Assembly: GCA_934163035.1 (NCBI GenBank)
Contig: CAKPJX010000002.1
Coordinates: 13,977-77,976 of the forward strand
Length of the DNA stretch: 64,000 bases
Reading direction: 5' to 3'
Source: an uncultured Bacilli bacterium
GTDB lineage: Bacteria; Bacillota_I; Bacilli_A; RF39; UBA660
Shown: positions 12,714 to 57,339 of the stretch, piece by piece
Position numbering within the stretch: position 1 is the first letter of the stretch
Layout of the letters: the number at the start of each line of letters is the position of its first letter
Translations under genes and position numbers: made by a program
Notes under the pieces: model-generated
The model's database searches: none
Seen by the model: only the letters and a program-made list of their open reading frames with translations
Told to the model about the DNA's origin: nothing

Positions 12714-13040
12714 TTAATTATCTCTCTTACTAGATAAAAATGTCACCTTCTCTGCTACAATATCCATAACATAACTCTTTTTGTCTTCATTTTCTATAAC
12801 TCTAGATTGAATTCTACCCTTTATTCCTACAATGTCTCCTTTCCCACAATATTGTGCTGTATTAGATGCAACATTTTCGAAAGCTACACAATCAACAAAA
12901 TCTGTATCATATGTTCCATCCATATTTTTAAAACTTCTAGGTATAGCTAATGATATTGTAGCAATCTTTTTTCCAGATTCACCTTTATTAATTTTAATAT
13001 TTCTAGTAAGTCTTCCAACCAAAACCACCTGATTTAACAC
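12714..13040 (-). CDS. ssb: single-stranded DNA-binding protein, short SsbB-like form without an acidic tail
   Basis: OB-fold (VVLVGRLTRN ... FVDCVAF). The likely true start is a GTG at 13038-13040, preceded by a perfect AGGAGGTGA RBS (MLNQVVLVGRL). The ORF-track start at 13091 is probably over-extended. Confidence 0.7.
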   Translation of the reverse strand: MLNQVVLVGRLTRNIKINKGESGKKIATISLAIPRSFKNMDGTYDTDFVDCVAFENVASNTAQYCGKGDIVGIKGRIQSRVIENEDKKSYVMDIVAEKVTFLSSKRDN

Positions 13041-13197
13041 CAAATCACCTCCTCTCGAAAACATAATATTAATAATTATCATTTTTTTCAAATGAAGAAT
13101 TTAACTAATTCAAGTAAAAATTTTGTCAAAAAAAAAGAAATTCCTTCTAAGAAAAATTTCTTTTTATAATCATAATAATCATCATTTAACAACTTTG

Positions 13198-17672: not shown

Positions 17673-19214
17673 TTACATAGTTTTAATTTTAGAATACCCT
17701 CTATCATAATCATCATCTAACAATGATTGAGCTTTACTAAGTAATTTAACAAGTTCATTTTTACCAGCAACTTGTGATCTCAAAGATTTAATTTCTTCTC
17801 GTTGCTTTTCAATCATATTCTGCATCTTACTAACTTCATCTTCCATACTTTTATATTCTCTAAATAAACTCTCATACCTAGTAACCAATTTCTTATTTTC
17901 TTCAAAAGCCTTACGTCTAAAATCAGTAAGTTTTTTTAATTTTTCTTCATAATCCGCCATTGTATGTCTTTGTTCTTCTATTTGACTAATCATCTTATTC
18001 ATAACAACAGCTGTATCTTCAAAAACCGTATCACGACTATCATCACTATAATCATCATCTAAAGAAAAATCTCTTTTCTTTTCAATAGGTCTTTTATCAT
18101 TAAGTATATCAGCAAAATTAAAATTATCTGAATCCTTAGCTTCCTCTTCAAATATATTTTTAGGATTATTATCTATATCATAGGTATAATCGCTTTTATT
18201 ATCATCTATACTTCTAAAAGAATCATCATTATTATTATTAATCTCATCATTAACAGCAGTAAATTCATCAAGACTACCATCATTAGTAGCTATTTTATCA
18301 AAAGAAACAGGAGCAATCTCCCTCTCATCAATATCATCATCTTCAACTGTTTTTTCCTCAATTGATGGATTACTAATAGTGTTATCAGTTACAGTATTTT
18401 TTTCTTCAACAGGAGAACTATCAACACTAGAAACATCTGGAACAATAGCCTCACTATTTGCATTATTTTCATCACCAAGTTCCTTAACTTCACTTGAAAC
18501 ATTTTGTACTGGTGTAAATATATTTTGAGCAGACTCATTATCCATAGCTTCATCAATCATCTTTTTTTCTACTTTAAAATCTCTAACATCCAAATCATTA
18601 TCATCTGTTTTAATATTTTCATTTACTTCTTTAACTAAAGGATATTCAATAATTTCAGATTCAACTGTATTACCAGATAAGAAAATAGACTTATCATTAA
18701 TACCAACAAAACTGAAAAATTTATCATCACATAAATTATTACCATTTAAATCAGCTAGCTTAACTTCTGAAAACTGATCATTAAAAACGAACTTACCTTT
18801 AGGCCCCATTTTACTATACATTTTTTCTTTAATGGCTGCCGATGTAGAAACCAATTTTGTTGCTGCTAAAGGATCCTTTCTCATCGCAATAGTATCAAGA
18901 ACACTCTTAGTAATAGGATTTGAATTTTCAATTAATAAGAATTTATCATTAACTGGTTTAATAGATTTGTTTACAAAGGGCACAATAACATTACCATCAA
19001 TATCAATAACACCAATAGATAAAGCCACTACTAAAGGATCTATAGCCTCCACTAAAGCCGTAGATGCTACAATGTAACCATTACTTAATTTTTCTCCATC
19101 TAAAAAGTAATATGTTTTTCCATCTTCAGTAGTTCCATATGTACATAAGATATCACTACGATCCTTATATTTTACTAGTCCCTTTTGAACTCGCATCATT
19201 CTAACACCACCCAT
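17673..19214 (-). CDS. hypothetical protein: N-terminal globular domain, long acidic disordered linker, C-terminal coiled coil
   Basis: 513 aa. Residues about 230-400 are D/E/N/S-rich low complexity. The last about 100 aa have heptad-like KLKKLTDFRRKAFEEN ... IKSLRSQV. No family recognised. Confidence 0.4.
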   Translation of the reverse strand: MGGVRMMRVQKGLVKYKDRSDILCTYGTTEDGKTYYFLDGEKLSNGYIVASTALVEAIDPLVVALSIGVIDIDGNVIVPFVNKSIKPVNDKFLLIENSNPITKSVLDTIAMRKDPLAATKLVSTSAAIKEKMYSKMGPKGKFVFNDQFSEVKLADLNGNNLCDDKFFSFVGINDKSIFLSGNTVESEIIEYPLVKEVNENIKTDDNDLDVRDFKVEKKMIDEAMDNESAQNIFTPVQNVSSEVKELGDENNANSEAIVPDVSSVDSSPVEEKNTVTDNTISNPSIEEKTVEDDDIDEREIAPVSFDKIATNDGSLDEFTAVNDEINNNNDDSFRSIDDNKSDYTYDIDNNPKNIFEEEAKDSDNFNFADILNDKRPIEKKRDFSLDDDYSDDSRDTVFEDTAVVMNKMISQIEEQRHTMADYEEKLKKLTDFRRKAFEENKKLVTRYESLFREYKSMEDEVSKMQNMIEKQREEIKSLRSQVAGKNELVKLLSKAQSLLDDDYDRGYSKIKTM

Positions 19215-22161: not shown

Positions 22162-23592
22162 CTAATTTACATTCAAATCCTTATAAAGGATCACATCTTT
22201 TTTAGAAAAAATCTTTTCAAATCTCTTATCATGTTCTAAGTAATATGAAAGCCTAGTATCATTAGGAACTAAATAATAATCAAATTTATACTTATTAATT
22301 AACTTCACATAGTTACCATTTAAGTTACATATATCATAATAATCTCTTATATTATTTTTAGAATATAAATCAAATCTACCATCAACAAAAACATCAATAT
22401 CATTATAAATTAAATATCCACCATAATCATAATAATTATATAGTCTCTTAGGATTTTCTAATTTAATAGTATCAATTACCTTAGAAGTAACTATAGAGTC
22501 ACTATCTTTAGGAAGAATACCATTCTTAAAAGCTAAAATTACAAAAAGGAAAGATGCTATTAAAAAACAAAGAGATGTTCCTTTATCATATTTTCTACCT
22601 GAAATATAATAAAATACAAAATAGGAACAAATTATATAAGTATATGGCCAAAATCTAATACTCTTAAGTCCCAAATATGCTACAAAACAGAAAAGTATTA
22701 AATCAATAAATCTAATCTTCTTTTTACTAAAAATAAATATAAAAGCAATAAGTACCAAAAGACCTAAATACGGAAAATGAGAACCGTCAGAAAAATTAGT
22801 AGGATGCCACTCAGAAATAAAACTCATCATAAAACTATCAGCCATATTCATGTAAGGATACAAAATCATCTTAATACCATGAGGATTAATCATTAAACAT
22901 AACACATTTAAAACCAATACAACTAGATACTTACGAATCTGTTTTTTACTAAGTCTAATAGCCTCTATTTTAGAAAATTTAAATTTAAACATTCCACAAA
23001 ATAAGAATATCAAAATTAATATATATATTAAACTACTAGAACCTCCGTGAACATTAGCCCAAATAATAGAAATTAAAGGCAACAAATATATCTTTTTTGA
23101 ATTTTCATTATAAAAAAGATCAAGTAATATATAAATTGTAAGACATAAAAGTACATTACTAAAAATATGTGGTCTAGCTGATAAAAACCCTAAAAATATT
23201 AAAGATAATACTATCCAAAATAAACTAAAAGGTATATTTTTTAAATAATCTTTTTTATTAGTAATAAAAATTATTAATTGTAATAAAGCTATAAATACAA
23301 AAACATATACAAAAACATGACTCCCAGGAAAAACAGTTGAAAGCAAATATAATAATATTTCAAACAACCATTCATGTGAAAACCAATATGTACCACGTAA
23401 ATACCATGAAAATCTATCACTTAATAATATAGTTTTATTATTAAACATATATTTTCCAGCTTTAATATGCCAATAATAGTCTGACTCAAAAAAACAAAAT
23501 GAAGCCATAAGTAGACTAAAAGTTAAAATAAAAAGTAAAAATAACAATACCCATTTATTCTTTTTAACAAACTGCTTAATCTTCATACACAA
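22162..23592 (-). CDS. large polytopic membrane protein, possibly a polysaccharide polymerase or glycosyltransferase type
   Basis: 476 aa, at least 10 transmembrane helices, C-terminal extracytoplasmic domain. No diagnostic motif seen. Confidence 0.35.
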   Translation of the reverse strand: MCMKIKQFVKKNKWVLLFLLFILTFSLLMASFCFFESDYYWHIKAGKYMFNNKTILLSDRFSWYLRGTYWFSHEWLFEILLYLLSTVFPGSHVFVYVFVFIALLQLIIFITNKKDYLKNIPFSLFWIVLSLIFLGFLSARPHIFSNVLLCLTIYILLDLFYNENSKKIYLLPLISIIWANVHGGSSSLIYILILIFLFCGMFKFKFSKIEAIRLSKKQIRKYLVVLVLNVLCLMINPHGIKMILYPYMNMADSFMMSFISEWHPTNFSDGSHFPYLGLLVLIAFIFIFSKKKIRFIDLILFCFVAYLGLKSIRFWPYTYIICSYFVFYYISGRKYDKGTSLCFLIASFLFVILAFKNGILPKDSDSIVTSKVIDTIKLENPKRLYNYYDYGGYLIYNDIDVFVDGRFDLYSKNNIRDYYDICNLNGNYVKLINKYKFDYYLVPNDTRLSYYLEHDKRFEKIFSKKDVILYKDLNVN

Positions 23593-24671: not shown

Positions 24672-24851
24672 TTATCTAAATTGACAGCAAGAGCCACATT
24701 GAACATTACTTACAGTATTTTCTTCACTGCAAGAATATTGTGGTCTATAAGTATGTTTATAAACATGATGATTTATTATTCTGGTATGTATTGGACATAC
24801 ATGCCCTTGCCCTTTCTTGATAGATATTTCATCTTTTTTAATTATTTTCTT
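24672..24851 (-). other. start-less coding segment: putative 3' segment of a split CotD-like His/Cys-rich spore coat gene
   Basis: Open frame after a TAG, with no ATG/GTG/TTG start or RBS. Encodes KKIIKKDEISIKKGQGHVCPIHTRIINHHVYKHTYRPQYSCSEENTVSNVQCGSCCQFR. GC content is locally elevated. The N/H/H-x-x-H-x-Y-x-P and terminal CC motifs recall the inner coat protein CotD (memory-based). Confidence 0.3.
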
Positions 24852-25288
24852 CTATTTCTTTTTCTACATCCTCTGGCGCAGTAGTATTAATAACATTAAC
24901 TACACCTATTATATTAGGAACAACTTTAAATCCACCAACATTATATCTAGGATTTTCTTCATCACTAGTATTTCTTTTTAATATCTTATTCATTTCAATT
25001 ATCATATCTTTAGTTAATAAATTATCAATATTATCTAACATATAGTCAAATAACTTAAAATGATTTTTAGATTCAATTAAATCATCTAACTTTATTAAAA
25101 CATCACTTTCAGGAATAAAAGAAGATGTATCAAATATTGCTTCAGTTTGTTCATTAGTTAATCTACTACCTTCTATCTTATTTGAATTATAAGCAAAATT
25201 AACTTGCGAATAATGATATATATTACCTTTAAATTTAGATCCCTTTTGTTTAATTAATTCATTTTTAATTTTATTTATATCAATAAAT
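24838..25288 (-). pseudogene. Fic/Doc family gene, N-terminal part only (truncated before the HPFx[DE]GNGR motif)
   Basis: Fic_N-like NSNKIEGSRLTNEQTEAIFD, then FKLFDYMLDN ... NKILKRNT ... NVGGFKVVPNIIG. The frame lacks an ATG start (strong GAAAGGAG RBS, then ATT) and ends before the Fic catalytic motif. Confidence 0.5.
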
Positions 25289-25319
25289 TAATCTCCTTTC
25301 AAATTATAATACATATTTG

Positions 25320-26030
25320 ACTTAATGGACATTCTTCACAATTCTTTTTATTACAAAAGGAATTAACTAATTGCCATAAATATTTATCTATACCACTTGG
25401 ATTGATATTCAACTCTCTCCAACATTAACATAAGTATCAGACAATTTTACAATATCATTATTTGAAAGATTAGTTGTATCAATTATATTTGTTAAATAAC
25501 TAATTTCAATATCATGTCTATCTATTGGGATAGAATTTACATTCTCCTTAAAATTACAGATATTAGAGCCACATTATTAATAAACCACCCGTTTTTTTGT
25601 CCATAACCTTTAATTACTTTTATAAACTGATTTAATTCATTAATATCTTTCATTGTTTTTAAATAACTTAAAATATTATCATATTTAAGTAATTCATTAG
25701 ATATATTAATCCATTTTTTAGTCGCAACATTAGGATATCTTGGATGAATATTTTTCACAATAATACTATGTAATTCCGCCTCTTTCATTTGACTAACATA
25801 TTTAGGACAAAATATACTAGGATATTTTTCATAGGTATTAATTAAATTATTGTGATAAATTTTAGAACGCATTCCATAATCTAGTAGACAAGAATAAAAC
25901 ATGTATAAACAATATTCATTAGTACCATAAGGTATACTTCTTGGAAAATTAACACTTGCTAATTCTCGTTCATTAACAAAATGCCTTTAGTTTGTATCTA
26001 TTTTTCTTAAAGTTTTTAGCCCACCATAAA
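25320..26030 (-). pseudogene. decayed gene remnants spread over three frames, including the 121-aa ORF at 25537-25902
   Basis: Consecutive open segments in different frames (... NEYCLYMFYSCLLDYG ... KGYGQKNGWFINN / SIPIDRHDIEISYLTN ... / IDKYLWQLVNSFCNKKNCEECPLSQIC). None has a proper start and stops occur in all frames upstream. Origin unknown. Confidence 0.35.
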
Positions 26031-26137
26031 TGTCTCCCTATTTTTGATAGAATAAGATTTAAAAATTGATTTATCTTCCAACTTTCTTATTTATTAAAAA
26101 AGAACGTTCTAATAATATATAACATTACATCATTATT

Positions 26138-27697
26138 TTAATTAACTATATCAAAATTAACTATAACATTTATAGACTTATCATCAAATATTTCAATCCT
26201 ATCAATTAAACAAACTATTAACTCTCTACTAAAATCTCTCATAAATAAAAAATCATTAACATATTTTATCATTATTTTGTCCCTAAATTTATCATTATAA
26301 ATAATATTATTTAGTTCATTATATTTTCTTTTTATAGTATCAAGTTCACCTTCTAATCTTATTTTTATTCTTTCATATTGTTCCAAAGTAATTTTTTTAT
26401 TTAATTTATCTAAATAAACAGTATCTAGATTATCATTAATTTGCTCTATCCTAGTATTAATCAACTCTAATTCTCTTTTACCATTATTTTGATTACTTTT
26501 ATTCAAATTATTTAAAACAGTACTCCTAATTTTATCTCTATCAATATATTTAATAAATCTATCAACTAAAGAACTAATAATTACTTTTTCCATTTCATCA
26601 TAATTATTCGAATGAGTTGTACATAATTTTTGCCTCATATAAGTCCTATAATAATTACAAATAGTATAACACCTATTATCCGTCTTTCTTCTAGAAGTTA
26701 TTGAAATTTTATGACCACAATCACCACAATACAAAAGTCCATCCAATAAATGGTTTTCTTTTTTCTCACTTCTTCCTACATTTTTAGGTATCCTTTTTTG
26801 CACCTCATAAAATATTTCTTTATCAATAATAGCTTCATGAGTATTTTCTACAATTATATAATCTTTAGGATTATTTCTAACAACTTTTTTAACTTTATAA
26901 TTTATTTTACTTCTTCTATTCTGCACCATATCTCCAATATACATCCTGTTAGTTAATATATCTCTTACTGTTTTAGAATGCCACAGTCCATATTTTAAGT
27001 TATAATTACTTTTCCATTCAAAACTATAATATTGTGCTGGTGTTTTTATGCCTTCATTAGTTAACTTTTTTGCTATTTTGAAAAATGACAATCCATCTAA
27101 ACACATATCATAGATTGTTTTAACAATTATGGCTTGTTCTTCATTAATAACTAAGTGATTTTTATCATTAGTATCCTGGTCATACCCAAATGGAGTTCTA
27201 CCTCCCACCCATTTACCTTCTTTTTGCTTTGCTTTCAAACTAGCTCTTATCTTTTTAGAAATATCCTTTGCATACATATCATTCATTATTGCTTTAAATG
27301 GCGCTATGTCATTATTTGAATTATCTAAGAATGTATCAATATTATCAGTCACCGCAATATACCTAACATTATGTTTAGGAAAATATTTTTCAATTAAACT
27401 ACCAGTGCCAATATAATCCCTACCTAATCTTGACATATCTTTAGTAATAACCATATTAACTCTTCCTAATTCTATATCACCTAGTAATCTATTAAAAGCT
27501 GGTCTATCAAAACTAGTACCAGAATATCCGTCATCAATATAAATATCATATATATCTAAATTATTTTCATCTACATACTGAAGTAATAAACTCTTTTGGT
27601 TAGTAATACTCTCACTTTCATAAACTTTATCATCATCCTCACGAGATAATCTTATATAAAGACCAACACTATATTTTTCCAAGAGACTTATCACCAT
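26138..27697 (-). CDS. large serine recombinase (SpoIVCA/phage serine-integrase type)
   Basis: N-terminal resolvase catalytic domain (VGLYIRLSREDDDK ... SITNQKSLL ... YIDDGYSGTSFDRPAFNRLL ... SRLGRD), recombinase domain, Cys-rich zinc-ribbon (CGDCGHK ... C ... C) and a C-terminal coiled coil; 519 aa. Confidence 0.9.
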   Translation of the reverse strand: MVISLLEKYSVGLYIRLSREDDDKVYESESITNQKSLLLQYVDENNLDIYDIYIDDGYSGTSFDRPAFNRLLGDIELGRVNMVITKDMSRLGRDYIGTGSLIEKYFPKHNVRYIAVTDNIDTFLDNSNNDIAPFKAIMNDMYAKDISKKIRASLKAKQKEGKWVGGRTPFGYDQDTNDKNHLVINEEQAIIVKTIYDMCLDGLSFFKIAKKLTNEGIKTPAQYYSFEWKSNYNLKYGLWHSKTVRDILTNRMYIGDMVQNRRSKINYKVKKVVRNNPKDYIIVENTHEAIIDKEIFYEVQKRIPKNVGRSEKKENHLLDGLLYCGDCGHKISITSRRKTDNRCYTICNYYRTYMRQKLCTTHSNNYDEMEKVIISSLVDRFIKYIDRDKIRSTVLNNLNKSNQNNGKRELELINTRIEQINDNLDTVYLDKLNKKITLEQYERIKIRLEGELDTIKRKYNELNNIIYNDKFRDKIMIKYVNDFLFMRDFSRELIVCLIDRIEIFDDKSINVIVNFDIVN

Positions 27698-27902
27698 CTG
27701 AAAATAAAGAAGAAGTGATTCTAAAATTTCTTTTTAATTTTCTACTCAAAAAATCAATCAATATATCATTGATATCTTTTTTTTGATTAGAAATATAATT
27801 AATTTTATATTTATCCATAATAAGCACCTCACTTAAATGTATGGATAAAAAAACAAATTTAGTAACAAATAATAAAAACACTCTAAAAAATAGAATGTTC
27901 AT
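27669..27902 (-). CDS. small ORF between the methyltransferase and the recombinase (possible accessory or regulatory protein)
   Basis: 77 aa, co-oriented, overlaps the recombinase start by 29 nt. No homology recognisable. Confidence 0.25.
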   Translation of the reverse strand: MNILFFRVFLLFVTKFVFLSIHLSEVLIMDKYKINYISNQKKDINDILIDFLSRKLKRNFRITSSLFSDGDKSLGKI

Positions 27903-27919: not shown

Positions 27920-28768
27920 CTAAAATGTATCTTTATTTTTAAAATTAGTAATTATTACTTCTTCTACATTACCTCTTTTACTGCCATTAGCATTTATATT
28001 TCTTTTTGCCTCTATTAAATGAATATTATACCCTTTATACAATTCATTAATAAGTATAGTATTATGATTTGAAAGCATTACATAAACACCTCTAGCATCC
28101 AATTCTTTAAATACTTTAGCTAGTCTTCTTTGTTCATCTTTATTAAATCCCTCTTCAGTATAACTATTAAATGTATTAGTATCAGAATCATATGGAGGAT
28201 CAAAATAAACAAAGTCTCCCTTTTTAGCAGTACTAACAGCTTCTTCAAAATCAACACTTAAAATCTTAATATCATTCATAGTTAAATAATTACTAACTGT
28301 TATTAAATTACTACCTTCATAAGTATTAATTTTAAGTTTCTTCCCAAAAGGTACATTAAATTCATTCTTACTATTAACTCTATAAAGTCCATTAAAACAT
28401 GCCTTATTTAAATAAATAGTACGAGCCGCTCTAGTATAATCAGATAATCTATTATAAGAAGCCTTATTTCTATCCTTATTTCTAATCTCATAGTAAAATT
28501 CTTCTGAGTGTTGAGTCTCATAATGATTTAAAACACTACACATCTTTTTAAATTTATTCAAATCACATAAGCATCTATATACATTCATAAGCTCCATATT
28601 GGAATCATTAATAACAGCTTTCTTAGGAGATAATTCAAATAATAATGCTCCTCCACCAACAAAAGGTTCATAATATGTATCAAATTCATCCGGAACATAT
28701 TTTTTTAATTTATCTATAATTTGTCTTTTTCCACCAGCCCATTTAACAAATGGTTTTCCTTTAAACAT
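27920..28768 (-). CDS. DNA adenine methyltransferase, Dam family (alpha-class N6-adenine methyltransferase)
   Basis: N-terminal KWAGGKRQ ... YYEPFVGGGALLF (motif X/I) and C-terminal YFDPPYDSD (DPPY motif IV). Order and length (282 aa) are typical of GATC-type Dam enzymes. No adjacent intact restriction enzyme. Confidence 0.9.
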   Translation of the reverse strand: MFKGKPFVKWAGGKRQIIDKLKKYVPDEFDTYYEPFVGGGALLFELSPKKAVINDSNMELMNVYRCLCDLNKFKKMCSVLNHYETQHSEEFYYEIRNKDRNKASYNRLSDYTRAARTIYLNKACFNGLYRVNSKNEFNVPFGKKLKINTYEGSNLITVSNYLTMNDIKILSVDFEEAVSTAKKGDFVYFDPPYDSDTNTFNSYTEEGFNKDEQRRLAKVFKELDARGVYVMLSNHNTILINELYKGYNIHLIEAKRNINANGSKRGNVEEVIITNFKNKDTF

Positions 28769-28889: not shown

Positions 28890-29111
28890 TCATACTTGTG
28901 GTACTTCATGAACGATAGTTCTATGAACGCATTTTTCTTGCACTGCCTCACTTATAGGTGAAGAGTATCCAGCATTTTGAACAGACTGATTTTCAGCATA
29001 GTTCATCATATTAATATCAACATCCATATTATTATCAACAACATTATTGTTACCAACAACAGAAGAATCAAAATCGAAATTTGGCATATTAGTCATACCT
29101 TGATCAAACAT
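28890..29111 (-). CDS. small protein, putative 5' segment of the split CotD-like gene (73 aa from the ATG at 29109-29111)
   Basis: GGAGG RBS 11 nt upstream of ATG MFDQGMTNMPNF ... The N/D/S-rich region ends ... EKCVHRTIVHEVPQV, directly followed by TGA TAA at the edge of the recombinase block. The ORF-track start at 29189 is probably over-extended. Confidence 0.4.
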   Translation of the reverse strand: MFDQGMTNMPNFDFDSSVVGNNNVVDNNMDVDINMMNYAENQSVQNAGYSSPISEAVQEKCVHRTIVHEVPQV

Positions 29112-29213
29112 ATTATAAATACCTCCTCTATTGTATAGTATGTCAGAAGAATTTATTAGCCACGATAAAAACCCAAAAAAATACAACAATCATAAAGACA
29201 GTTGTATCTGTAA

Positions 29214-30530
29214 TTAAAAAGGCATCTTCATCTTACCATTAGACATCATCTTCATCATTTTCTTCATTTGTTCAAATTGCTGTAGTAACTTATTAACTTC
29301 TTGAACTGAAGTTCCACTACCTTTAGCAATCCTAGTTTTTCTACTTGCCTTTATTATATCAGGATTTCTTCTTTCCTTAACAGTCATAGATAAAACAATT
29401 GCTTCTATGTGAGCCATCTGTTTAGGATCAATCTTTACATTAGTAAGTCCCATCTTTTTAGCACCAGGAATTAATTTAATTAAATTCTCTAAAGGACCTA
29501 ATTTCTTCATCTGCTTCATTGTCGCTAAAAAGTCTTCTAAATCAAACTTTCCCTGTTGCATTTTCTTAGCTGTTTTATAAGCCTCTTTTTCATCAATAGC
29601 CTCAGTTGCCTTTTCAACTAAAGAAACTATATCACCCATTCCCAAAATTCTTCCTGCCATTCTCTCCGGATCAAAACTATCAAGACCATCTAACTTTTCA
29701 GAAACACCAATAAACTTAATAGGAACATTAGTTAAATGTCTAACAGATAAAGCTACACCGCCTCTAGTATCGCCATCTAGCTTAGTTAAAATAACTCCTG
29801 TTAATGGCAATTTATCATTAAAACCAGTAATAACATTAATTGCATCTTGCCCCATCATTGAGTCAATTACTAATAATACTTCTTGTGGATTAACTGTATC
29901 TTTTATATTGATAAGTTCATCCATAAGCTCTAAGTCTATATGAAGTCGACCAGCTGTATCAATTAAAACATAATCATAATTATTCTCTTTTGCATAAATA
30001 ATCGCATTTTTAGAAATTAAAACAGGATCAGCCTTACCTTCATCATAAACCTCAATACCCAATTGTTTTCCTAATTGCTTCAATTGATCTATAGCTGCCG
30101 GTCTATAAACATCACAAGCTACTAATAATGGCTTTTTTGCCTCTTTTTTTCTTAAATAATTAGCAAGTTTAGCAGCTGTAGTTGTCTTACCAGAACCCTG
30201 TAATCCAACGAGCATCAAAATAGCCGGATTGCCTTTAGTATTTAAAGGAGCACTCTCTCCTCCAAGAAGAGATGTAAGTTCATCTTTTACAATTTTAACA
30301 AATAAATCACCAGGATTTATACTACTAGCAACCTCTTCACCTAATGCTTTCTCCTTAACAGAATTAGTAAATTCTTTAACAACTTTATAGTTAACATCTG
30401 CCTCTAATAAAGCAAGACGTACTTCTCTCATCATTTCAGAAATATTATCCTCAGTTATTTTTCCATAACCTTTTATTTTATGTACGATAGACTGTAATCT
30501 ATCACCTAAACTCTCAAACATTATAATCAC
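29214..30530 (-). CDS. ffh: signal recognition particle protein Ffh
   Basis: N domain, G domain (GLQGSGKTTTAAKLA, DTAGR, TKLDGD) and a Met-rich M domain. Confidence 0.95.
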   Translation of the reverse strand: MIIMFESLGDRLQSIVHKIKGYGKITEDNISEMMREVRLALLEADVNYKVVKEFTNSVKEKALGEEVASSINPGDLFVKIVKDELTSLLGGESAPLNTKGNPAILMLVGLQGSGKTTTAAKLANYLRKKEAKKPLLVACDVYRPAAIDQLKQLGKQLGIEVYDEGKADPVLISKNAIIYAKENNYDYVLIDTAGRLHIDLELMDELINIKDTVNPQEVLLVIDSMMGQDAINVITGFNDKLPLTGVILTKLDGDTRGGVALSVRHLTNVPIKFIGVSEKLDGLDSFDPERMAGRILGMGDIVSLVEKATEAIDEKEAYKTAKKMQQGKFDLEDFLATMKQMKKLGPLENLIKLIPGAKKMGLTNVKIDPKQMAHIEAIVLSMTVKERRNPDIIKASRKTRIAKGSGTSVQEVNKLLQQFEQMKKMMKMMSNGKMKMPF

Positions 30531-30571: not shown

Positions 30572-30598
30572 AAGAAAAAAAAACTGCAAAAGCAGTTT
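30572..30598 (-). terminator. intrinsic terminator after the HerA-like gene
   Basis: Minus strand: AAACTGCTTTTGCAGTTT hairpin followed by T9. Confidence 0.55.
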
Positions 30599-32765
30599 AT
30601 TCAGAAAGACTAACCAAAGGAACTCCAGTATCCGTTTGTGGCATTGACGAACCGAAATCATTAACAGGTGTATTATTAATAATACTTGGTGTAGAAAAAG
30701 ATGCATTACCAACACTAGGACTAGAATCATTCATAACAAAATAATCATTGTTAGAAGAATTTAATGATGAAACTTCAGGCATAGCACCTTGAGGTATAGT
30801 ATTAACAGGACTAATATTGGCAATTTGACTTGAAGCCATATTACTGTCGGTATCAAGTTGACCAATACTAGGAGTGCTTTCAAAATTATTGTTTATAGAA
30901 TGATTATAATCAAAAATAGGAGAACTATCACTAATAGTACTATTATTTACGGAATTATTATATCCAGAATTATTCTCCTGTTCATATGTAACATTTGCAG
31001 TATTAGTATTAGGATTACCATTCCATATTGTAACAACATCACAGTTACCACTCCATGGAGCAGGATTAGGCATCTCCATCTTAACAATCAATGGTATTCT
31101 AAAAGCCATACCAAAGCCCAAACAAGTACCAGCTTGTAATGTTTTCTGTTTTTGAACAATTTCATCACTAATATTTGGAACCATTTTTCTAATATAATCA
31201 ACATCAACAGGGTGGTTCATTTTAAATATCAAGAAATTTGAACACTGTGAAATAACAGTATCAGAAAGTTCAACTGGTCTTTGTGAAATAAGTCCCAAAA
31301 TAACACCGTACTTACGGCCCTCTTTAGCAATACGTTCAAATATATTATAACCAATCAAAAATCTATCAGTATCATTTTGAATGTATCTATGAGCTTCTTC
31401 AACAATAATATGAAAAGGTATACTAGCTCTTTGCTTCAATCCCTTAGCAAACTCAAATACAAGTCTTGAATAAATCTTTGTAATAACCTTAGCAAAGTCA
31501 TCATCAACATCATCTAAATTAATATTTATAATTTGAAACTTTCTACCATTATCAAGTATCATTGAAGATAAATAAGTTTCAAGTGACACATAATTAGGAT
31601 AATCAAAATACTTAGCATTATCACCAACAATTAATTCATGTAATCTAACTTTAATAGTTACAGCATCACCATAAGTATTCTCATTTCTAAGCCATCCTTC
31701 ACTAATTAAAGTAAAGTTTAAAGCCTTCTCCAAAGTATCCAAAGTATAGTAAACATCTTTCTTTGGTTCATATGAATCAAGCTCTTCTTTTATAAATGAA
31801 GATACATACTCAGTAAGTAAAACACTCTCTGTAAATTGACCTTGTTTATCAATTAAAAAACACTCTCTAAATTTTCTCGTATATCCAATTCCTTGAACAA
31901 CAGCCTCTAAATTAAATTGTTCTGTAGAACAACTAGCTAATATAGAAAAGATTTCATTCCTTTTATTAGGAGAAGTTTCATTAGTATATAAAATAGTCAT
32001 AATAGCTTTAGCAATAAGATGATTTTTATAACTATTAGCATCCATATCTTCCTGTGAAAAAACCAAAGCTAACTTTAACATTCTCTCTATTATTGGAAGT
32101 TGTGAATGATTAGTAGCTTGAAGAAGCAATGCAAGATCTGTATGGTTAAGTAAAAATATTGGTAATCTTAATTTTTCCCCAGCACTATCAACTTCATTTG
32201 TACTATATAATCTATAATTATAACTTGAATTAATACTATTTAAATTATTAAAAGCATTATAATATTCGCCTGATGAATCAAATAATAAAATATTAGCTTT
32301 ATATGGAAAAAGTCTATTATCATGAAACATATTTTGGAAAAGTCTAGAAATACCACAACTCTTACCAGATCCACTGTTACCAAATATAGCAAAATGATTA
32401 CTAAAGAAATTGTTAACATCTAAAAATACAGGATAATCATTATAAAAGGGACTAACTCCAAGTTTCATATACCCATTAGTATCTCTACCTACAATCATAG
32501 GTATTTCAGACTGTTCTATTACCCTAATTTTAGCATCCAAAGACGGTTTTCTAATTGTTCCACCTAACAACTTACCATTAACAATCTCACCTAAAAATCT
32601 AGCTTTAACAAGGTTGCCATCTAAATCATCAACCTCTCCAAGAATTTTTTTCTTATCATCCTCAAAAATAATATGCAAGTTCATTAAATTCTGAGTTAAA
32701 GCCACTCCCTCTTTTAATTTTATATTTGCTCCATGATCACTAATATAGACAATTCTATCAAACAT
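30597..32765 (-). CDS. HerA/FtsK-superfamily (DUF87-like) P-loop ATPase with a long C-terminal disordered tail
   Basis: N-terminal beta-barrel-like region. Walker A AIFGNSGSGKS, Walker B HIIVEEAHRY, then GRKYGVILGLISQRPVELSDTVISQCSNFLIFKMNHPVD, the typical HerA sensor/arginine-finger block. The last about 170 aa are N/S/T-rich low complexity. It has its own AGGGG RBS. Confidence 0.7.
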   Translation of the reverse strand: MFDRIVYISDHGANIKLKEGVALTQNLMNLHIIFEDDKKKILGEVDDLDGNLVKARFLGEIVNGKLLGGTIRKPSLDAKIRVIEQSEIPMIVGRDTNGYMKLGVSPFYNDYPVFLDVNNFFSNHFAIFGNSGSGKSCGISRLFQNMFHDNRLFPYKANILLFDSSGEYYNAFNNLNSINSSYNYRLYSTNEVDSAGEKLRLPIFLLNHTDLALLLQATNHSQLPIIERMLKLALVFSQEDMDANSYKNHLIAKAIMTILYTNETSPNKRNEIFSILASCSTEQFNLEAVVQGIGYTRKFRECFLIDKQGQFTESVLLTEYVSSFIKEELDSYEPKKDVYYTLDTLEKALNFTLISEGWLRNENTYGDAVTIKVRLHELIVGDNAKYFDYPNYVSLETYLSSMILDNGRKFQIININLDDVDDDFAKVITKIYSRLVFEFAKGLKQRASIPFHIIVEEAHRYIQNDTDRFLIGYNIFERIAKEGRKYGVILGLISQRPVELSDTVISQCSNFLIFKMNHPVDVDYIRKMVPNISDEIVQKQKTLQAGTCLGFGMAFRIPLIVKMEMPNPAPWSGNCDVVTIWNGNPNTNTANVTYEQENNSGYNNSVNNSTISDSSPIFDYNHSINNNFESTPSIGQLDTDSNMASSQIANISPVNTIPQGAMPEVSSLNSSNNDYFVMNDSSPSVGNASFSTPSIINNTPVNDFGSSMPQTDTGVPLVSLSE

Positions 32766-32802
32766 AATTTAACCCCTTTCAAACCGCCCCTATCATATAA
32801 TG

Positions 32803-32831
32803 ATTATACAAATTATTTGTCATTTTTACAA
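32803..32831 (-). promoter_or_regulatory. sigma-A-type promoter for the HerA-like gene, inside the ylxM-herA spacer
   Basis: Minus strand: TTGTAA - 17 bp - TATAAT (-35 at plus 32826-32831, -10 at plus 32803-32808), about 35 nt upstream of the ATG. Confidence 0.45.
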
Positions 32832-32867: not shown

Positions 32868-33170
32868 TTAAAACAAACTATCAAATTTAACTTTAATATC
32901 TTTATCACTAGACTTCGAAACAATTTCATCAAACTTCTTTATTTTTTCCCAAAAACCAAGCTTCTCTTCAAATTCTAACAACTTTGAAACTGTAATTTTT
33001 AGTTGTTTAAAAATAGCATTTCTACTAACATTATAGTTAATTGCCATTTCCCCTAAACTTAAATTATTAAAATAATAATCTTCATAATAAGCTTTCTGTT
33101 TATCAGTCAATAAATTTGCATATATATCATATAGTTCATTATAATAAAACATATCATCCATATAGATCAC
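32868..33170 (-). CDS. ylxM: YlxM/UPF0122 putative DNA-binding protein of the SRP operon
   Basis: About 100 aa with a sigma-70 region-4-like HTH (LSLGEMAINYNVSRNAIFKQLK). The position between ftsY and ffh matches Bacillus. Confidence 0.8.
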   Translation of the reverse strand: MIYMDDMFYYNELYDIYANLLTDKQKAYYEDYYFNNLSLGEMAINYNVSRNAIFKQLKITVSKLLEFEEKLGFWEKIKKFDEIVSKSSDKDIKVKFDSLF

Positions 33171-34172
33171 CTACATCATATCTTTAAATAAACCATAAAT
33201 ATACTTTTCTATATCAAAAGCTTCTAAATCATCTTGTCCTTCTCCTAGTCCAATATATTTAACTGGTAAACCTATAATTTCTTTTATAGCCAAAACAATT
33301 CCACCTTTAGCTGTACCGTCCAATTTAGTTAACACAATTCCAGTAATATCAGTTATTTCTTTAAATGCTTTAGCTTGACTTATACCATTTTGTCCCGTAG
33401 TAGCATCAATTACTAATAAAGTTTCACTAGTACCACCATCAATTAAGCTTCCTATTACTTTATTTATCTTTTCAAGTTCATGCATTAAATTAACTTTATT
33501 TTGTAATCTACCAGCTGTATCAACTAAAACAACATCGTAATTATCATTTATCGCTTTACTAACACCATCATAAACAACACTAGCCGGATCACTACCCTCA
33601 CTTTTACTATAAAAGGCCACATCTACACGCTTACTCCATTCCTCCAGTTGTTCAATAGCACCAGCTCTAAACGTATCAGCACCAACAAGTAAAATCTTTT
33701 TACCATCTTTTTTTAATACATTCGCAATCTTACCAATAGTAGTAGTTTTACCAACACCATTTACTCCAACAAACAAAATAACAGTAGGACCATTAGGATT
33801 AAAGTTTATTTTACTTGATAAAACCTGATCACCTACATATATAATAAATAACTCATCAACAATTATCTCTTTTAATAATTCAGGATTATCAATCTTCTCT
33901 TTTCTAACACGATCTCTTAATCTATCAATAAAATCCATAACAGTATTAACACCAATATCTGCCATAATTAAAATTTCTTCTAACTCATCAAAATATTCAT
34001 CTGTTACTTTTTTATATTTATTAGATAAATTAACAAGCTTTGATACAAAACCCTCTCTCGATTTAGAAAGACCTTTTTCATAAGTCTTAACACTACTATC
34101 ACTATTTATATTTTTTTCATCTGAATTATTATTACCTTTAAAAATATTCTTAATTTTATTAAAAAATCCCAT
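33171..34172 (-). CDS. ftsY: signal recognition particle receptor FtsY
   Basis: NG domain GVNGVGKTTTIGKIA, DTAGR, TKLDGTAKGG; no long acidic A-domain (short Firmicutes type). Confidence 0.95.
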   Translation of the reverse strand: MGFFNKIKNIFKGNNNSDEKNINSDSSVKTYEKGLSKSREGFVSKLVNLSNKYKKVTDEYFDELEEILIMADIGVNTVMDFIDRLRDRVRKEKIDNPELLKEIIVDELFIIYVGDQVLSSKINFNPNGPTVILFVGVNGVGKTTTIGKIANVLKKDGKKILLVGADTFRAGAIEQLEEWSKRVDVAFYSKSEGSDPASVVYDGVSKAINDNYDVVLVDTAGRLQNKVNLMHELEKINKVIGSLIDGGTSETLLVIDATTGQNGISQAKAFKEITDITGIVLTKLDGTAKGGIVLAIKEIIGLPVKYIGLGEGQDDLEAFDIEKYIYGLFKDMM

Positions 34173-39243: not shown

Positions 39244-39270
39244 TTAAAGCACTTTTTAATTTTATATAAA
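39242..39270. terminator. bidirectional intrinsic terminator after rnjA
   Basis: AAAAGTGCTT-AATTA-AAGCACTTTT hairpin flanked by A- and T-runs, overlapping the rnjA stop. Confidence 0.55.
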
Positions 39271-39657
39271 GCTATAGACGTCATTATCTATTATTGTTCT
39301 TAAATCAAGTACACTACTTCGACAAAATAGTGCCACCTCAAAATAGAAATAACGTTTAGAAAAATCACTAATCCTAAATAATTCAATATAATGATTCCAC
39401 GTAAGTTCATTAAGTCTTGAAAAAAAAATAGGAAAAGTACAATAAAATATCTGCATCATTTTAATATTGAAAATGGAAAAACTATTACTACTACCAAAAC
39501 GATAAGAACAAAAAGTAGAATATTTATAAATTGAACTAGAATAAATATTCTTAGTATTATAAACTTTTCTACCAATCATCCAGAATAAAAACAATTTATT
39601 AATATTAATCACCTATTATATTATTCGAAAAAAAAAGACCATTTTCCATAGTCTTTT

Positions 39658-45045: not shown

Positions 45046-45392
45046 AAATATAAATAAGCCATGTTCTGTTCCTATATAAATAGGCGACAAACATTTATCT
45101 ACCGGACTAGCCGGTCCCTAAATCAGTTTAATTCCTGCTTTAGGACTCCCCTACCAAAATTTGGGTTTCTCGCTCATGGGGTTTACCTCGTTTCACTTCT
45201 TCGTTTCCAAAGACATCGTCACTGTGGCACTTTATGAACTGAATCATATCACAAGGACTTAGATTCATAATTCGCCGTTAGTAATACTACTCAAGGTTAT
45301 TTATTCCCAAGACATGAACACTACAATCATCTCAGACTGTGCGAGCATGGACTTTCCTCAAGGATCTTTAAGACCCCAGCGTTTGTCTATAT
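45046..45392 (-). ncRNA. rnpB: RNase P RNA, type B (Bacillus type)
   Basis: GC-rich island. Minus strand contains GAGGAAAGTCCATGCTCGCACAG, AAGTGCCACAGTGACGA, GGTAAACCCCATGAGCGAGAAACCCAAATTTTGGTAGGGGA and ACAGAACATGGCTTA. These match conserved P4/P10-12/P15-18 blocks of B. subtilis rnpB nearly base for base. Confidence 0.85.
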
Positions 45393-45393
45393 A

Positions 45394-45741
45394 TTAATTG
45401 TCACTATTATTATCTTTATTTAAGCCACTATATACCATCTTTTCAAGTTGAGATAGCCTTCTCATAATATCAACATTTGTAACTTCCGGAACATCATTAT
45501 TACGTGCTACTTCCATGCTAAGCTTAGAATTTCTAAGTTCCTGCTTTAAAGACATAATTTCTGCTAACAAATCGGCTTTTTCCTTTTCTAAATCATTAAT
45601 TATGTTAAAGAATTGCTCATAGTCACCTATAATAATATCCAAAAATTGATCAACTTCTTTTAAACGATATCCACGAGTATCTATTTTAAACTCTTTTTCT
45701 AAAATATCTTGTGGCATAAGCGTAATCTTATTTTGATACAT
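45394..45741 (-). CDS. gpsB: cell cycle protein GpsB (DivIVA-domain)
   Basis: N-terminal DivIVA domain (ILEKEFKIDTRGYRLKEVDQFLD) and a C-terminal short coiled coil. Its position directly upstream of rnpB matches B. subtilis. Confidence 0.8.
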   Translation of the reverse strand: MYQNKITLMPQDILEKEFKIDTRGYRLKEVDQFLDIIIGDYEQFFNIINDLEKEKADLLAEIMSLKQELRNSKLSMEVARNNDVPEVTNVDIMRRLSQLEKMVYSGLNKDNNSDN

Positions 45742-55687: not shown

Positions 55688-55725
55688 ATAAAAAGCTTTC
55701 CATAATAGGTATGGAAAGCTTTTTA
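55688..55725 (-). terminator. intrinsic terminator of the cadherin-like surface protein gene
   Basis: 14-bp hairpin AAAAGCTTTCCATA ... TATGGAAAGCTTTT overlapping the stop codon, followed by a T-run on the minus strand. Confidence 0.6.
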
Positions 55726-57339
55726 AATTGTTTCTAATTGTTCTTCTTTATTATTATCATTATTCTTCTTAGCTAGTACAAATAATACTACTGATATTAA
55801 AACTAAAACAATAAATATTATATATGGTAATATTCCGATACTACTCTTTTTCTCAACAGTTATTTTATACGTCTTAGTTGTTCCATCTTCTGCTGTTACT
55901 ATTATAGATATAACACTTCCATCTTTTAGATTACTGTTACCATCTATTTCATAACTTGCTTTACTATCACTACACTTAGCTTTTATATTAAGTTTATCTT
56001 CTTTTATCTTTACTTTATAATTATATGTATTAATATTAAATTCTAACTTATATCCATCAATAGTTAATTCCCTTAACTTATTATTTGAAGATAACTTAAC
56101 ATTTTTTTCTTGTCTAATTACAGTTAATCTATAACTCTTAACATCACCATTTTCTGCTGTTACTAATATCTCAAATAAATTCTCTCCTACTTTTAATTTC
56201 TTATCCCCTTTTATTTCTGTCTTTGCCCTAGAATTATTTAAGATTGCATCTATTGTTATATTCTCATTCTCATATGGTACTTTTATTTCATATGCAGTTT
56301 TATCATTTGAAACGCTTACTACACCAGTTGATAATTTAATTTCTTTTAAGGTATTATCCTTACTTCTATCATCTTTTCTTGTCACCTTAATAACATAAGT
56401 TCTTACATTTCCATTTTCAGCTTGAACACTTATTTTTATAGTATTTAAACCATAAGCCAGACTAACATTCATCGATTTACTTCCAGCAGTGTATTTTGAT
56501 TTAGCATCTGTTAAGTTAGAAGTAACTTTAATACTACTAACATTTGAATCTACATCTAAACTATACTCATTTTTACCTGGAGTAAAATTAATCTTACCAG
56601 GACTTAACGTTAAACTAGACAAAGTATTAACTGAACTTCTATTATCCGGTCTATTAACCTTTATTGTATAAACACTCCTATTACCTGCTTCTGCTACTAC
56701 AGCTATATAAAATGTATTCATTCCATAATTAAGGTTTTTAACCCCTAAACCATCTACTCTACCAACTGCTGTTCCAGATATAGTAATACTTTGAGAATTA
56801 GTAGTAACCGAATATACTGTTGTTGAAGGATTAAAACTAGGACTCAATGTTCCACCACTTACTGATAAAGAACTTAAATTAGAATCAGTTGATTTAGCCG
56901 CTATAGATCTAGAAACATCACTCTGAGATCTTTCTACATAATTTTCATCACCTAAACTAATACCAGTGATATTAACACTGCCACCACTAAACCCATTTCC
57001 AGCCTTTACTGTAAAACTTCCTATTGCTACATTACCAGTAAAAAGATTTTCTCCATAAAGTATAAACATACCGCCATTCTGTTTATCACCTTGCCATCCA
57101 GAAGCAATATTATAATTACTTATTTCTAAATTACTACCAACAACCTGACCAGTAAACGAAACAAGAGCACCACTAGATACAGGAACACTAATGCTACAAG
57201 TAGTTGATTCACCAGGAGCCAGCTTTGAAGCACCACAATTTAAGTTTACACTAGCACTTAAAGCATCAGCACTAAAAGGCATTAAAAACACTAAACCTAA
57301 AATAAACAATATCTTTTTTTTCATAATTACCTCTCTCAA
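55723..57339 (-). CDS. membrane-anchored cell-surface protein with about 4 cadherin-like beta-sandwich repeats
   Basis: Signal peptide; repeated LSSLSVSGGTLSPSFNPSTTVYSV ... VYTIKVNR-type modules (cadherin-like beta-sandwich domain); C-terminal transmembrane anchor and charged tail. Confidence 0.6.
   Translation of the reverse strand: MREVIMKKKILFILGLVFLMPFSADALSASVNLNCGASKLAPGESTTCSISVPVSSGALVSFTGQVVGSNLEISNYNIASGWQGDKQNGGMFILYGENLFTGNVAIGSFTVKAGNGFSGGSVNITGISLGDENYVERSQSDVSRSIAAKSTDSNLSSLSVSGGTLSPSFNPSTTVYSVTTNSQSITISGTAVGRVDGLGVKNLNYGMNTFYIAVVAEAGNRSVYTIKVNRPDNRSSVNTLSSLTLSPGKINFTPGKNEYSLDVDSNVSSIKVTSNLTDAKSKYTAGSKSMNVSLAYGLNTIKISVQAENGNVRTYVIKVTRKDDRSKDNTLKEIKLSTGVVSVSNDKTAYEIKVPYENENITIDAILNNSRAKTEIKGDKKLKVGENLFEILVTAENGDVKSYRLTVIRQEKNVKLSSNNKLRELTIDGYKLEFNINTYNYKVKIKEDKLNIKAKCSDSKASYEIDGNSNLKDGSVISIIVTAEDGTTKTYKITVEKKSSIGILPYIIFIVLVLISVVLFVLAKKNNDNNKEEQLETI

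Follow-up and report, generated by a model that had tools for sequence, protein, structure and literature searches.

What is a HerA-type ATPase doing among the genes of the signal recognition particle (SRP)? The question is raised by a stretch of 64,000 nucleotides (nt) from an uncultured Bacilli bacterium of the order RF39 (contig CAKPJX010000002.1, positions 13,977 to 77,976), which in its full length we call the window. On its minus strand ftsY, ylxM, an open reading frame (ORF) of the HerA family, here named herA, and ffh follow one another, with ftsY and ylxM abutting. An initial annotation, made from the letters alone, had placed an ATPase of 722 amino acids (aa) between ylxM and ffh, and both the ORF list and Pfam confirm it there. 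Based on family membership, conservation and gene order, we propose, with confidence somewhat better than even, that this gene encodes a hexameric DNA motor of RF39-like gut Bacilli that works without a partner, is inherited vertically and serves a housekeeping rather than a defence function.

Profile searches agree on the family. The Pfam model DUF87 ('Helicase HerA central domain', PF01935) matches the protein with an E-value of 2.4e-19 (70.8 bits against a cut-off of 23.2), and PDLC04102, the best of the PADLOC HerA models, reaches 367 bits in an unbroken alignment from residue 96 to residue 590. The NCBIfam HerA models also match, all far under their equivalog cut-offs: 'anti-phage-associated helicase HerA' scores 164.6 bits against 850 and 143.3 against 800, and the equivalogs for HerA in double-strand-break repair 110.3 against 800 and 90.4 against 970. 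A sequence search of the Protein Data Bank (PDB) returned DUF4297-HerA chains (9c1m, 1.8e-43; 8xau, 9e-37), SIR2-HerA chains (8wiv, 8j4u) and Sulfolobus HerA (4d2i, 1.7e-28). An AlphaFold2 single-chain model, computed from a 15-sequence family alignment (predicted template modelling score 0.71), is confident over residues 1-579; its top 50 Foldseek matches in the PDB are HerA proteins without exception (50/50), and the alignments to these chains are full-length, spanning about 600-650 columns. Judged by sequence and by this model, residues 1-579 are a HerA-family protein composed of a barrel, a RecA-like core, a large helical insertion and an arginine/lysine finger predicted to act in trans. 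The HerA-type P-loop ATPase of the initial annotation is borne out by Pfam, PADLOC, PDB and Foldseek alike, and the model has a beta-barrel N-terminus and a disordered tail. Among Pfam families DUF87 alone was reported for the protein, with no FtsK_SpoIIIE, VirB4 or TraG match at E <=0.01. An FtsK identity and a conjugation or type IV secretion system (T4SS) identity were rejected as lacking profile support; membership of a conjugation family, which had been named at the outset as an outcome that would overturn the first interpretation, did not emerge, the profiles pointing to HerA.

The HerA architecture is complete, and its catalytic residues do not vary among the species compared. Residue conservation, computed on 80 species-level orthologs at >=50% identity, peaks in the ATPase core, where mean column identity is 0.8-0.86 over residues 451-510. 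All four motifs singled out by the initial annotation were located, at residues 129, 452, 483 and 506; the last two are GRKYGVILGLISQRPVEL and SQCSNFLIFKMNHP, respectively. The Walker A motif aligns with a GSTGSGKS stretch of the 8xau chain, whose Walker A lysine is K157 (PMC11291478). The predicted finger pair has its counterpart in the same chain in R455/K456, which touch ATP in trans (PMC11291478). Invariance across the 80 species extends to the Q495-R496-P497 stretch, to residues E44, G59, G69, K73, P74, R81 and E87 of the barrel and, in the insertion domain, which sits between Walker A and Walker B, to positions that include Q222, A252, K268, G292, Y295 and R297.

No partner is encoded near the gene. 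Pfam and PADLOC searches of nearly all ORFs of at least 100 aa found no SIR2, NurA or DUF4297 gene anywhere in the 64 kb, in agreement with the earlier remark that no such partner is adjacent. The sole match to the defence library in the window is a Dam-type methyltransferase, which relatives carry too.

Synteny, transcription signals and tail of herA

How long has herA resided at this position? The species survey took one genome per GTDB species. The 80 species-level loci that it recovered are 50-85% identical, and almost all come from metagenome-assembled genomes of uncultured gut Bacilli or 'Tenericutes', with a few under other record titles; Ca. Onthousia, Ca. Onthocola, Ca. Coprovivens, CAG:605 and CAG:460 are among the taxa. 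Ca. Coprovivens belongs to the GTDB order RF39 (PMC8035907). Members of this uncultured order are common gut inhabitants of animals, and their genomes are reduced (PMC6784871). Related loci, 83 in number, were grouped by mapping the window's proteins onto them and by clustering all flanking ORFs. Exact and near-exact copies keep the same gene order on contigs of 139-144 kb, and relatives at 77-89% identity, on contigs of up to 1.1 Mb, show ftsY-ylxM-HerA-ffh followed by the same small ORF. Group A comprises 52 species (51 at >=56% identity and L058 at 53%), in which ftsY and ylxM lie immediately upstream wherever the contig extends far enough, the sole exception being a locus cut by a contig end. 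The herA ortholog is preceded by ftsY in 51 and by ylxM in 50 of the 52 loci; ffh follows directly in 19/52, lies 1-4 kb further on in 7/52 and falls beyond the fetched flank in the remainder. Group B, with 31 species at 50-54% identity, occupies a second conserved housekeeping neighbourhood: an aspS-like gene, gatC, gatA, gatB, a variable membrane ORF, HerA and a ThiF/TcdA-like gene, then gpsA and rarA on the other strand, and xerD, the gene names here coming from reading the sequences and not from profile tests. No ftsY, ylxM or ffh occurs within 6 kb of herA in group B. Across the 83 loci no conserved unidentified neighbour was found besides ftsY/ylxM in group A and gatCAB, the tcdA-like gene, rarA and xerD in group B. 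Relatives at 35-45% identity are likewise solo and in housekeeping contexts, and more distant solo relatives stand beside eno/prsA/plsC/ltaS, or beside a ParA-like gene, HIT and CotE.

The sequences themselves bear the marks of vertical descent. Between the window and the relative L003, identity is 89% for the HerA core, 88% for Ffh, 91% for RNase J, 87% for RNase Y and 76% for FtsY, and across loci HerA divergence follows FtsY divergence. The composition of herA (29.3% GC, and 15.5% GC at third codon positions) is on par with that of ftsY, ffh, rnj and rny in surrounding DNA of 28% GC, and no compositional anomaly was detected. Plasmid matches do not exceed about 31-32% identity, and in phage records a terminase large subunit gave a partial match, the only other match being a fragment at 21% identity; a phage origin and plasmid-borne copies were rejected on account of such distant or partial matches. 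In a neighbour-joining tree, midpoint-rooted and without bootstrap support, group B is nested within group A, so the position directly after ftsY-ylxM looks ancestral. By gene order and divergence, herA has long resided in the ftsY-ylxM cluster and is inherited vertically. The initial annotation had read it as an insertion and possibly as a lineage-specific cassette; the synteny fixed in 52 species and the native GC content contradict the former, and the latter is at odds with a gene that keeps the same position throughout the clade. Comparison of the ylxM-ffh region in relatives finds the gene there across the family, as expected of a conserved housekeeping member, an outcome that the initial annotation had itself named as one that would overturn its reading. 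Two variations on the arrangement were observed. In one species (L040, 6001-7851 and 7867-9621) two HerA-like genes stand in tandem between ylxM and ffh; their products, of 616 and 584 aa, both share about 59% identity with the window protein. A membrane ORF of about 100 aa separates ftsY from ylxM in 30 related genomes (for example L013, 4040-4342) and is absent from the window.

The gene probably carries its own transcription signals in the window. In DNA so rich in AT the consensus scan for promoters finds as many sites as chance would give (37 against 37.6 expected), and sites were for that reason tested by conservation instead. L003 and L006 still have the -35 and the extended -10 (TGTATAAT) although the surrounding intergenic DNA has diverged, and 20 loci of the closest subclade (>=72% identity) have a promoter of the same form. 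In relatives a hairpin with a T-run occupies the corresponding position, its stem sequence differing between genomes, and in the intergenic alignment ffh has a conserved TATAAT and ribosome-binding site of its own. The conserved -35 and -10, the position of the terminator and the signals of ffh together indicate that the herA signals are probably real. The proposal of a separate transcription unit, made in the initial annotation from promoter, ribosome-binding site and terminator, looks right for the window and its close subclade. In the clade at 56-61% identity herA begins about 16 nt from ylxM and has no promoter, which makes it an operon member there; this distribution suggests that the promoter, the terminator and the long tail are gains of the window's close subclade. 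A terminator-like site at 31318..31305 falls within the coding region and was treated as chance.

The tail evolves apart from the rest of the protein. The initial annotation described it rightly as disordered and rich in Asn, Ser and Thr (N/S/T), and overestimated its length, which is 143 and not about 170 residues. Among orthologs the tail measures 1-423 residues: in the subclade at >=72% identity it is usually long, reaching 423 residues, with only 2-26 in a few loci, and most other orthologs end 1-5 residues past a conserved tryptophan. Because most orthologs do without it, the tail lies outside the core function. Tail middles cannot be aligned, but most tails close with a variant of one motif (G[VI]PL[IV][NS]L[SV][EG], PLITLTD, PLVALSDE, PLIDLTLDDDD.., PLIDLTLDDDDD...FD), which in some tails is repeated up to about five times. 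No other protein of the window matches the motif pattern. Bacterial single-stranded-DNA-binding protein (SSB) has a flexible tail that ends in an acidic-hydrophobic tip. By analogy, the hydrophobic-acidic end motif of the HerA tail probably tethers the ring to another protein.

Candidate functions of the solo HerA

What would such a protein do in the cell? If it resembles the HerA complexes whose structures have been solved, it would assemble into a hexamer holding double-stranded DNA in its pore and would step along the DNA through sequential ATP hydrolysis (PMC11291478). Its genomic context points to a housekeeping task on the chromosome, which may be recombinational repair, the processing of forks or ends, or segregation. 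In the close subclade the gene would then have gained its own promoter, its own terminator and a fast-evolving disordered tail, whose end motif may act as a tether between the ring and another protein. A precedent for a housekeeping role is Thermus HepA, though that protein always has NurA encoded upstream (PMC5448004).

Several points weigh against a motor of this kind. All characterised HerAs have a partner that is encoded next to them and binds the barrel face, which would make a solo motor unprecedented, and the ATPase activity of HerA standing alone is low (PMC11472057, PMC5448004). In the study of SIR2-HerA, HerA by itself had no helicase activity (PMC11472057). An unlinked partner may be encoded elsewhere in the genome. 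One locus (L100, 406-3237) retains the ylxM-herA-ffh synteny, and its Ffh is 85% identical to that of the window but its HerA core only 44% (tblastn; 41% in another search). Its product, P0124, is a fast-evolving protein from an intact ORF of 943 aa with a tail of 360 aa, in which Walker B reads LIDNAH, without the catalytic Glu, and Walker A reads GNDGFGKS; ATP hydrolysis is thus dispensable in at least one lineage. Furthermore, the tight operon linkage to ftsY-ylxM could point to a role away from DNA, and the tree that unites the solo clade is midpoint-rooted and has no bootstrap support.

Could herA instead be the orphan of a defence system, serving either as sensor or motor in a SIR2-HerA-like pair with its effector elsewhere or as a gene that defends on its own? 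We regard this as unlikely. The nearest relatives outside the clade do belong to SIR2-HerA pairs (four plasmid loci, P0136 and P0153), the best profile match is the PADLOC HerA model and the best NCBIfam match bears the name 'anti-phage-associated helicase HerA'. However, the latter reaches 165 bits where 850 are required, and the region of the barrel that binds SIR2 in the SIR2-HerA structure (PMC11472057) is shorter here and unmatched. A fixed chromosomal position with vertical inheritance in at least 80 species and in two housekeeping contexts is not the pattern of an orphaned defence gene, nor is a native composition, and no defence island surrounds the locus, where the Dam-type methyltransferase is the only nearby PADLOC match. 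The single-gene defence function floated in the initial annotation is not supported by a conserved housekeeping context without such an island. A recently inserted mobile cassette, or an ATPase of a conjugation system or T4SS (VirB4/TraG-like), is scarcely credible. The separate promoter and terminator might be taken as its traces, as might two features 3-5 kb downstream of ffh, a serine recombinase and a patch of low GC content, but the position is conserved across the clade, the composition is native, the window has no T4SS genes and the protein no FtsK_SpoIIIE, VirB4 or TraG match in Pfam at the threshold given above. The recombinase patch, moreover, is separate and is absent from relatives that still carry herA.

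Two further explanations accept the long residence of the gene and dispute its task; each strikes us as quite improbable. HerA might work with the products of the SRP cluster, having the small helix-turn-helix protein YlxM as its barrel-face partner or taking part in membrane targeting or secretion. The order ftsY-ylxM-herA, invariant in 52 species, and the gaps of about 16 nt in the clade at 56-61% identity are what this would predict, and in characterised systems the partner gene lies immediately upstream of herA. No member of the HerA clade is known to move proteins. In addition, the 31 species of group B have herA after gatCAB, with ftsY, ylxM and ffh all missing from the surrounding 6 kb, and the window's subclade has equipped herA with a promoter and terminator of its own. 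Alternatively, the protein might be a ring-shaped scaffold for which hydrolysis carries little weight, kept for assembly or tethering through its barrel face and tail, or slowly decaying. P0124, intact and syntenic despite the lost catalytic Glu and the altered Walker A, would be an instance, the degenerate Walker B motifs of the distant relatives P0133 and P0143 may be others, and the repeated short motifs in the tails are suggestive of tethering. Catalytic residues that are invariant in 80 species-level orthologs at >=50% identity, and a conservation that is highest in the ATPase core, argue against it.

What are the implications of a housekeeping motor without a partner? HerA biology has so far been that of two-component systems, with NurA for end resection and with SIR2 or DUF4297 for phage defence; in each of them a neighbouring gene encodes the partner, which stimulates the ATPase. 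A monophyletic clade without a partner in cis, fixed within a housekeeping operon and with its catalytic residues intact in at least 80 species, points to a bacterial role of HerA that has not been described. A more far-reaching version, which we hold to be rather doubtful, is that a defence-type HerA turned into a core, partner-free chromosome motor in RF39-like Bacilli with reduced genomes, where it would replace FtsK/SftA, AddAB or SMC, which may have been lost, or would use YlxM as a new partner of the barrel face, the tail being a recent recruitment device. In that event a component of defence would have been exapted for housekeeping, and no HerA had previously been shown to do its work in the absence of an effector encoded in cis. 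There is also a practical lesson, as defence-finder profiles flag such genes (PADLOC, 367 bits) although their context argues otherwise.

Feature map and surrounding genes

Features of the herA locus and the structured RNA of the window (window coordinates)
Feature	Position	Strand	Basis or remark
herA ORF	30597..32765	minus	ATG start, 722 aa plus stop
ftsY	33171..34172	minus	Pfam SRP54
ylxM	32868..33170	minus	Pfam UPF0122, 1.7e-21
ffh	29214..30530	minus	Pfam SRP54, SRP_SPB, SRP54_N; called as 435 aa; probable ATG 30521
Probable sigma-70-type promoter, TTGTAA-17-TATAAT with TG extension	32803..32831	minus	Consensus scan and conservation
Ribosome-binding site GAAAGGGG	32773..32780	minus	7 nt ahead of ATG, from sequence
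Probable intrinsic terminator, AAACTGC-TTTT-GCAGTTT and T-run	30572..30598	minus	Directly after stop codon (hairpin and T-run 30598..30581)
N-terminal beta-barrel (HAS-barrel type), residues 1-116	32418..32765	minus	Predicted model all-beta; predicted local distance difference test (pLDDT) ~85-90
Walker A GNSGSGKS, residues 129-136	32358..32381	minus	G129, N130, G132, G134, K135 invariant, 80 species
Helical insertion domain, ~residues 206-405	31551..32150	minus	Model helices 208-403, pLDDT ~90
Walker B/catalytic HIIVEEAH, residues 452-459	31389..31412	minus	E457, H459, R460 invariant; E456 >=95%
R484/K485, predicted trans-acting arginine-finger pair	31311..31316	minus	Aligned with RK of EGRKYG in 8xau; invariant, 80 species
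Disordered N/S/T-rich C-terminal tail, residues 580-722	30600..31028	minus	pLDDT 26-37; 45% N/S/T; no K/R
Short C-terminal motif GVPLVSLSE	30600..30626	minus	Variants close most tails
RNase P RNA class B	45050..45395	minus	281 bits; only Rfam match in window

The window as a whole is an ordinary region of core chromosome, as judged by the same Pfam and PADLOC searches. Its genes include the suf genes, ssb, recU-ponA, dnaD-nth, cca, der, pgsA, recA, murC, rny, rnj, rpoZ and recX, and none of its ORFs has a Pfam match to T4SS or relaxase genes. The class B RNase P RNA fits an origin in Bacillota. No tRNA genes occur in the 64 kb, and no tRNA or known RNA that could mark an insertion site lies near herA.

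Downstream of ffh the region is more varied. A small N-rich ORF (28890..29189, minus strand), which has no Pfam or PADLOC match, follows ffh. Its copies in relatives (L003, 9861-10199; L006, 9969-10310) encode 112-113 aa with a His/Cys-rich end (...CIHRTIVHEVPHVCPIHTRIINHHVYKHTYRPAYSCSEE...SCCQFR), and the window copy terminates early, after ...HEVPQV; it may resemble spore-coat proteins of the CotD type, and one distant HerA relative has a CotE gene close by. The serine recombinase mentioned above (26138..27697, minus strand) has Resolvase, Recombinase and Zn_ribbon_recom domains and lies, with several small ORFs (~24800..27900, minus strand), between the Dam-type methyltransferase gene (27920..28768) and rpoZ. 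GC content falls to 0.19-0.21 around it, and relatives have other genes at the same spot. The patch probably consists of inserted DNA, variable or mobile, that has no connection with herA.

Elsewhere in the window, again on the minus strand throughout, a predicted surface protein of 2035 aa (57336..63443) combines a papain-family C1 peptidase with ten Listeria-Bacteroides repeats, Big_2 and a C-terminal dockerin, and is followed by a protein of 538 aa with cadherin-like domains (55723..57339). An ORF of 116 aa (39262..39612) corresponds to the N-terminal part of DUF1016 only; it is conserved in relatives, where its counterparts of 115-119 aa lie between rny and rnj. Two ORFs, of 513 aa (17673..19214) and 476 aa (22162..23592), have no Pfam or PADLOC match, and the second abuts recX. 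The SSB-family protein (12714..13091) consists, at 125 aa, of the OB domain only and leaves no space for a C-terminal tail.

Comparison with known HerA systems

How does the solo HerA relate to systems already described? A literature search for HerA together with RF39, ylxM or FtsK found nothing relevant. The motor family that comes to mind for a housekeeping task on the chromosome is that of FtsK, SpoIIIE and SftA. These proteins are the housekeeping chromosome motors of Bacillota, and soluble SftA dispenses with the membrane anchor. As ring ATPases of the FtsK-HerA superfamily they are a possible functional analogue of the window protein. The differences lie in the protein itself, which has no FtsK_SpoIIIE (PF01580) match, has the barrel and insertion architecture of the HerA type and, in the predicted model, ends in a disordered C-terminus instead of a folded gamma domain. 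Since the model is folded from residue 1 and residues 1-116 are all-beta, there is no room for the N-terminal membrane domain of FtsK/SpoIIIE.

The HerA-NurA systems of archaea, Deinococcus and Thermus (HepA) share with the solo clade a chromosomal location, vertical inheritance and the housekeeping role on DNA that is proposed for the clade, and their fold is matched by the model (4d2i, 9x1m). Thermus HepA is encoded genus-wide on the chromosome, in an unrelated metabolic gene cluster, and takes part in both the repair and the transfer of DNA (PMC5448004). In these systems, however, NurA is always immediately upstream (PMC5448004), whereas the window has none, and similarity in sequence is lower, with 1.7e-28 for 4d2i and NCBIfam scores of 110 and 90 bits against cut-offs of 800 and 970. 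DUF4297-HerA provides the best sequence matches in the PDB, with the arginine-finger pair and the Walker A lysine aligned, and its DNA-bound spiral-staircase structures are the best mechanistic template. It differs in that no gene for DUF4297, a PD-(D/E)xK protein, is adjacent or within the window, and the DNA contacts R284/K287 of its insertion domain are not mappable by sequence onto the window protein.

The HerAs of SIR2-HerA (Nezha) systems are, by sequence, the nearest relatives that do not belong to the clade. They are 27-33% identical to the window protein across about 90% of the core and have the same full-length fold (8wiv, 8wld, 8sub, 8j4u), Walker A, Walker B and R/K finger. Six outgroup loci in this range of identity were examined, four on plasmids and two metagenomic (P0136, P0153), all in mobile or island contexts, and in every one (6/6) a SIR2 gene overlaps the 5' end of herA. 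The solo gene, in contrast, is core chromosomal; neither the window nor any ortholog locus has SIR2, the upstream gene being ylxM or a variable membrane ORF. Its barrel region is about 50 residues shorter, positions 1-148 of the PADLOC profile remaining unmatched, and its NCBIfam scores stay far under the equivalog cut-offs. Among clusters made at the 50% identity level, about 15 match the window protein over essentially its full length, and in the midpoint-rooted neighbour-joining tree without bootstrap support the solo proteins group in a single clade, with SIR2-linked HerAs of Firmicutes as its sister. The solo clade is best read as either a descendant or a sister of defence-type HerA, and it offers a natural comparison for the divergence of a defence component from a housekeeping enzyme.

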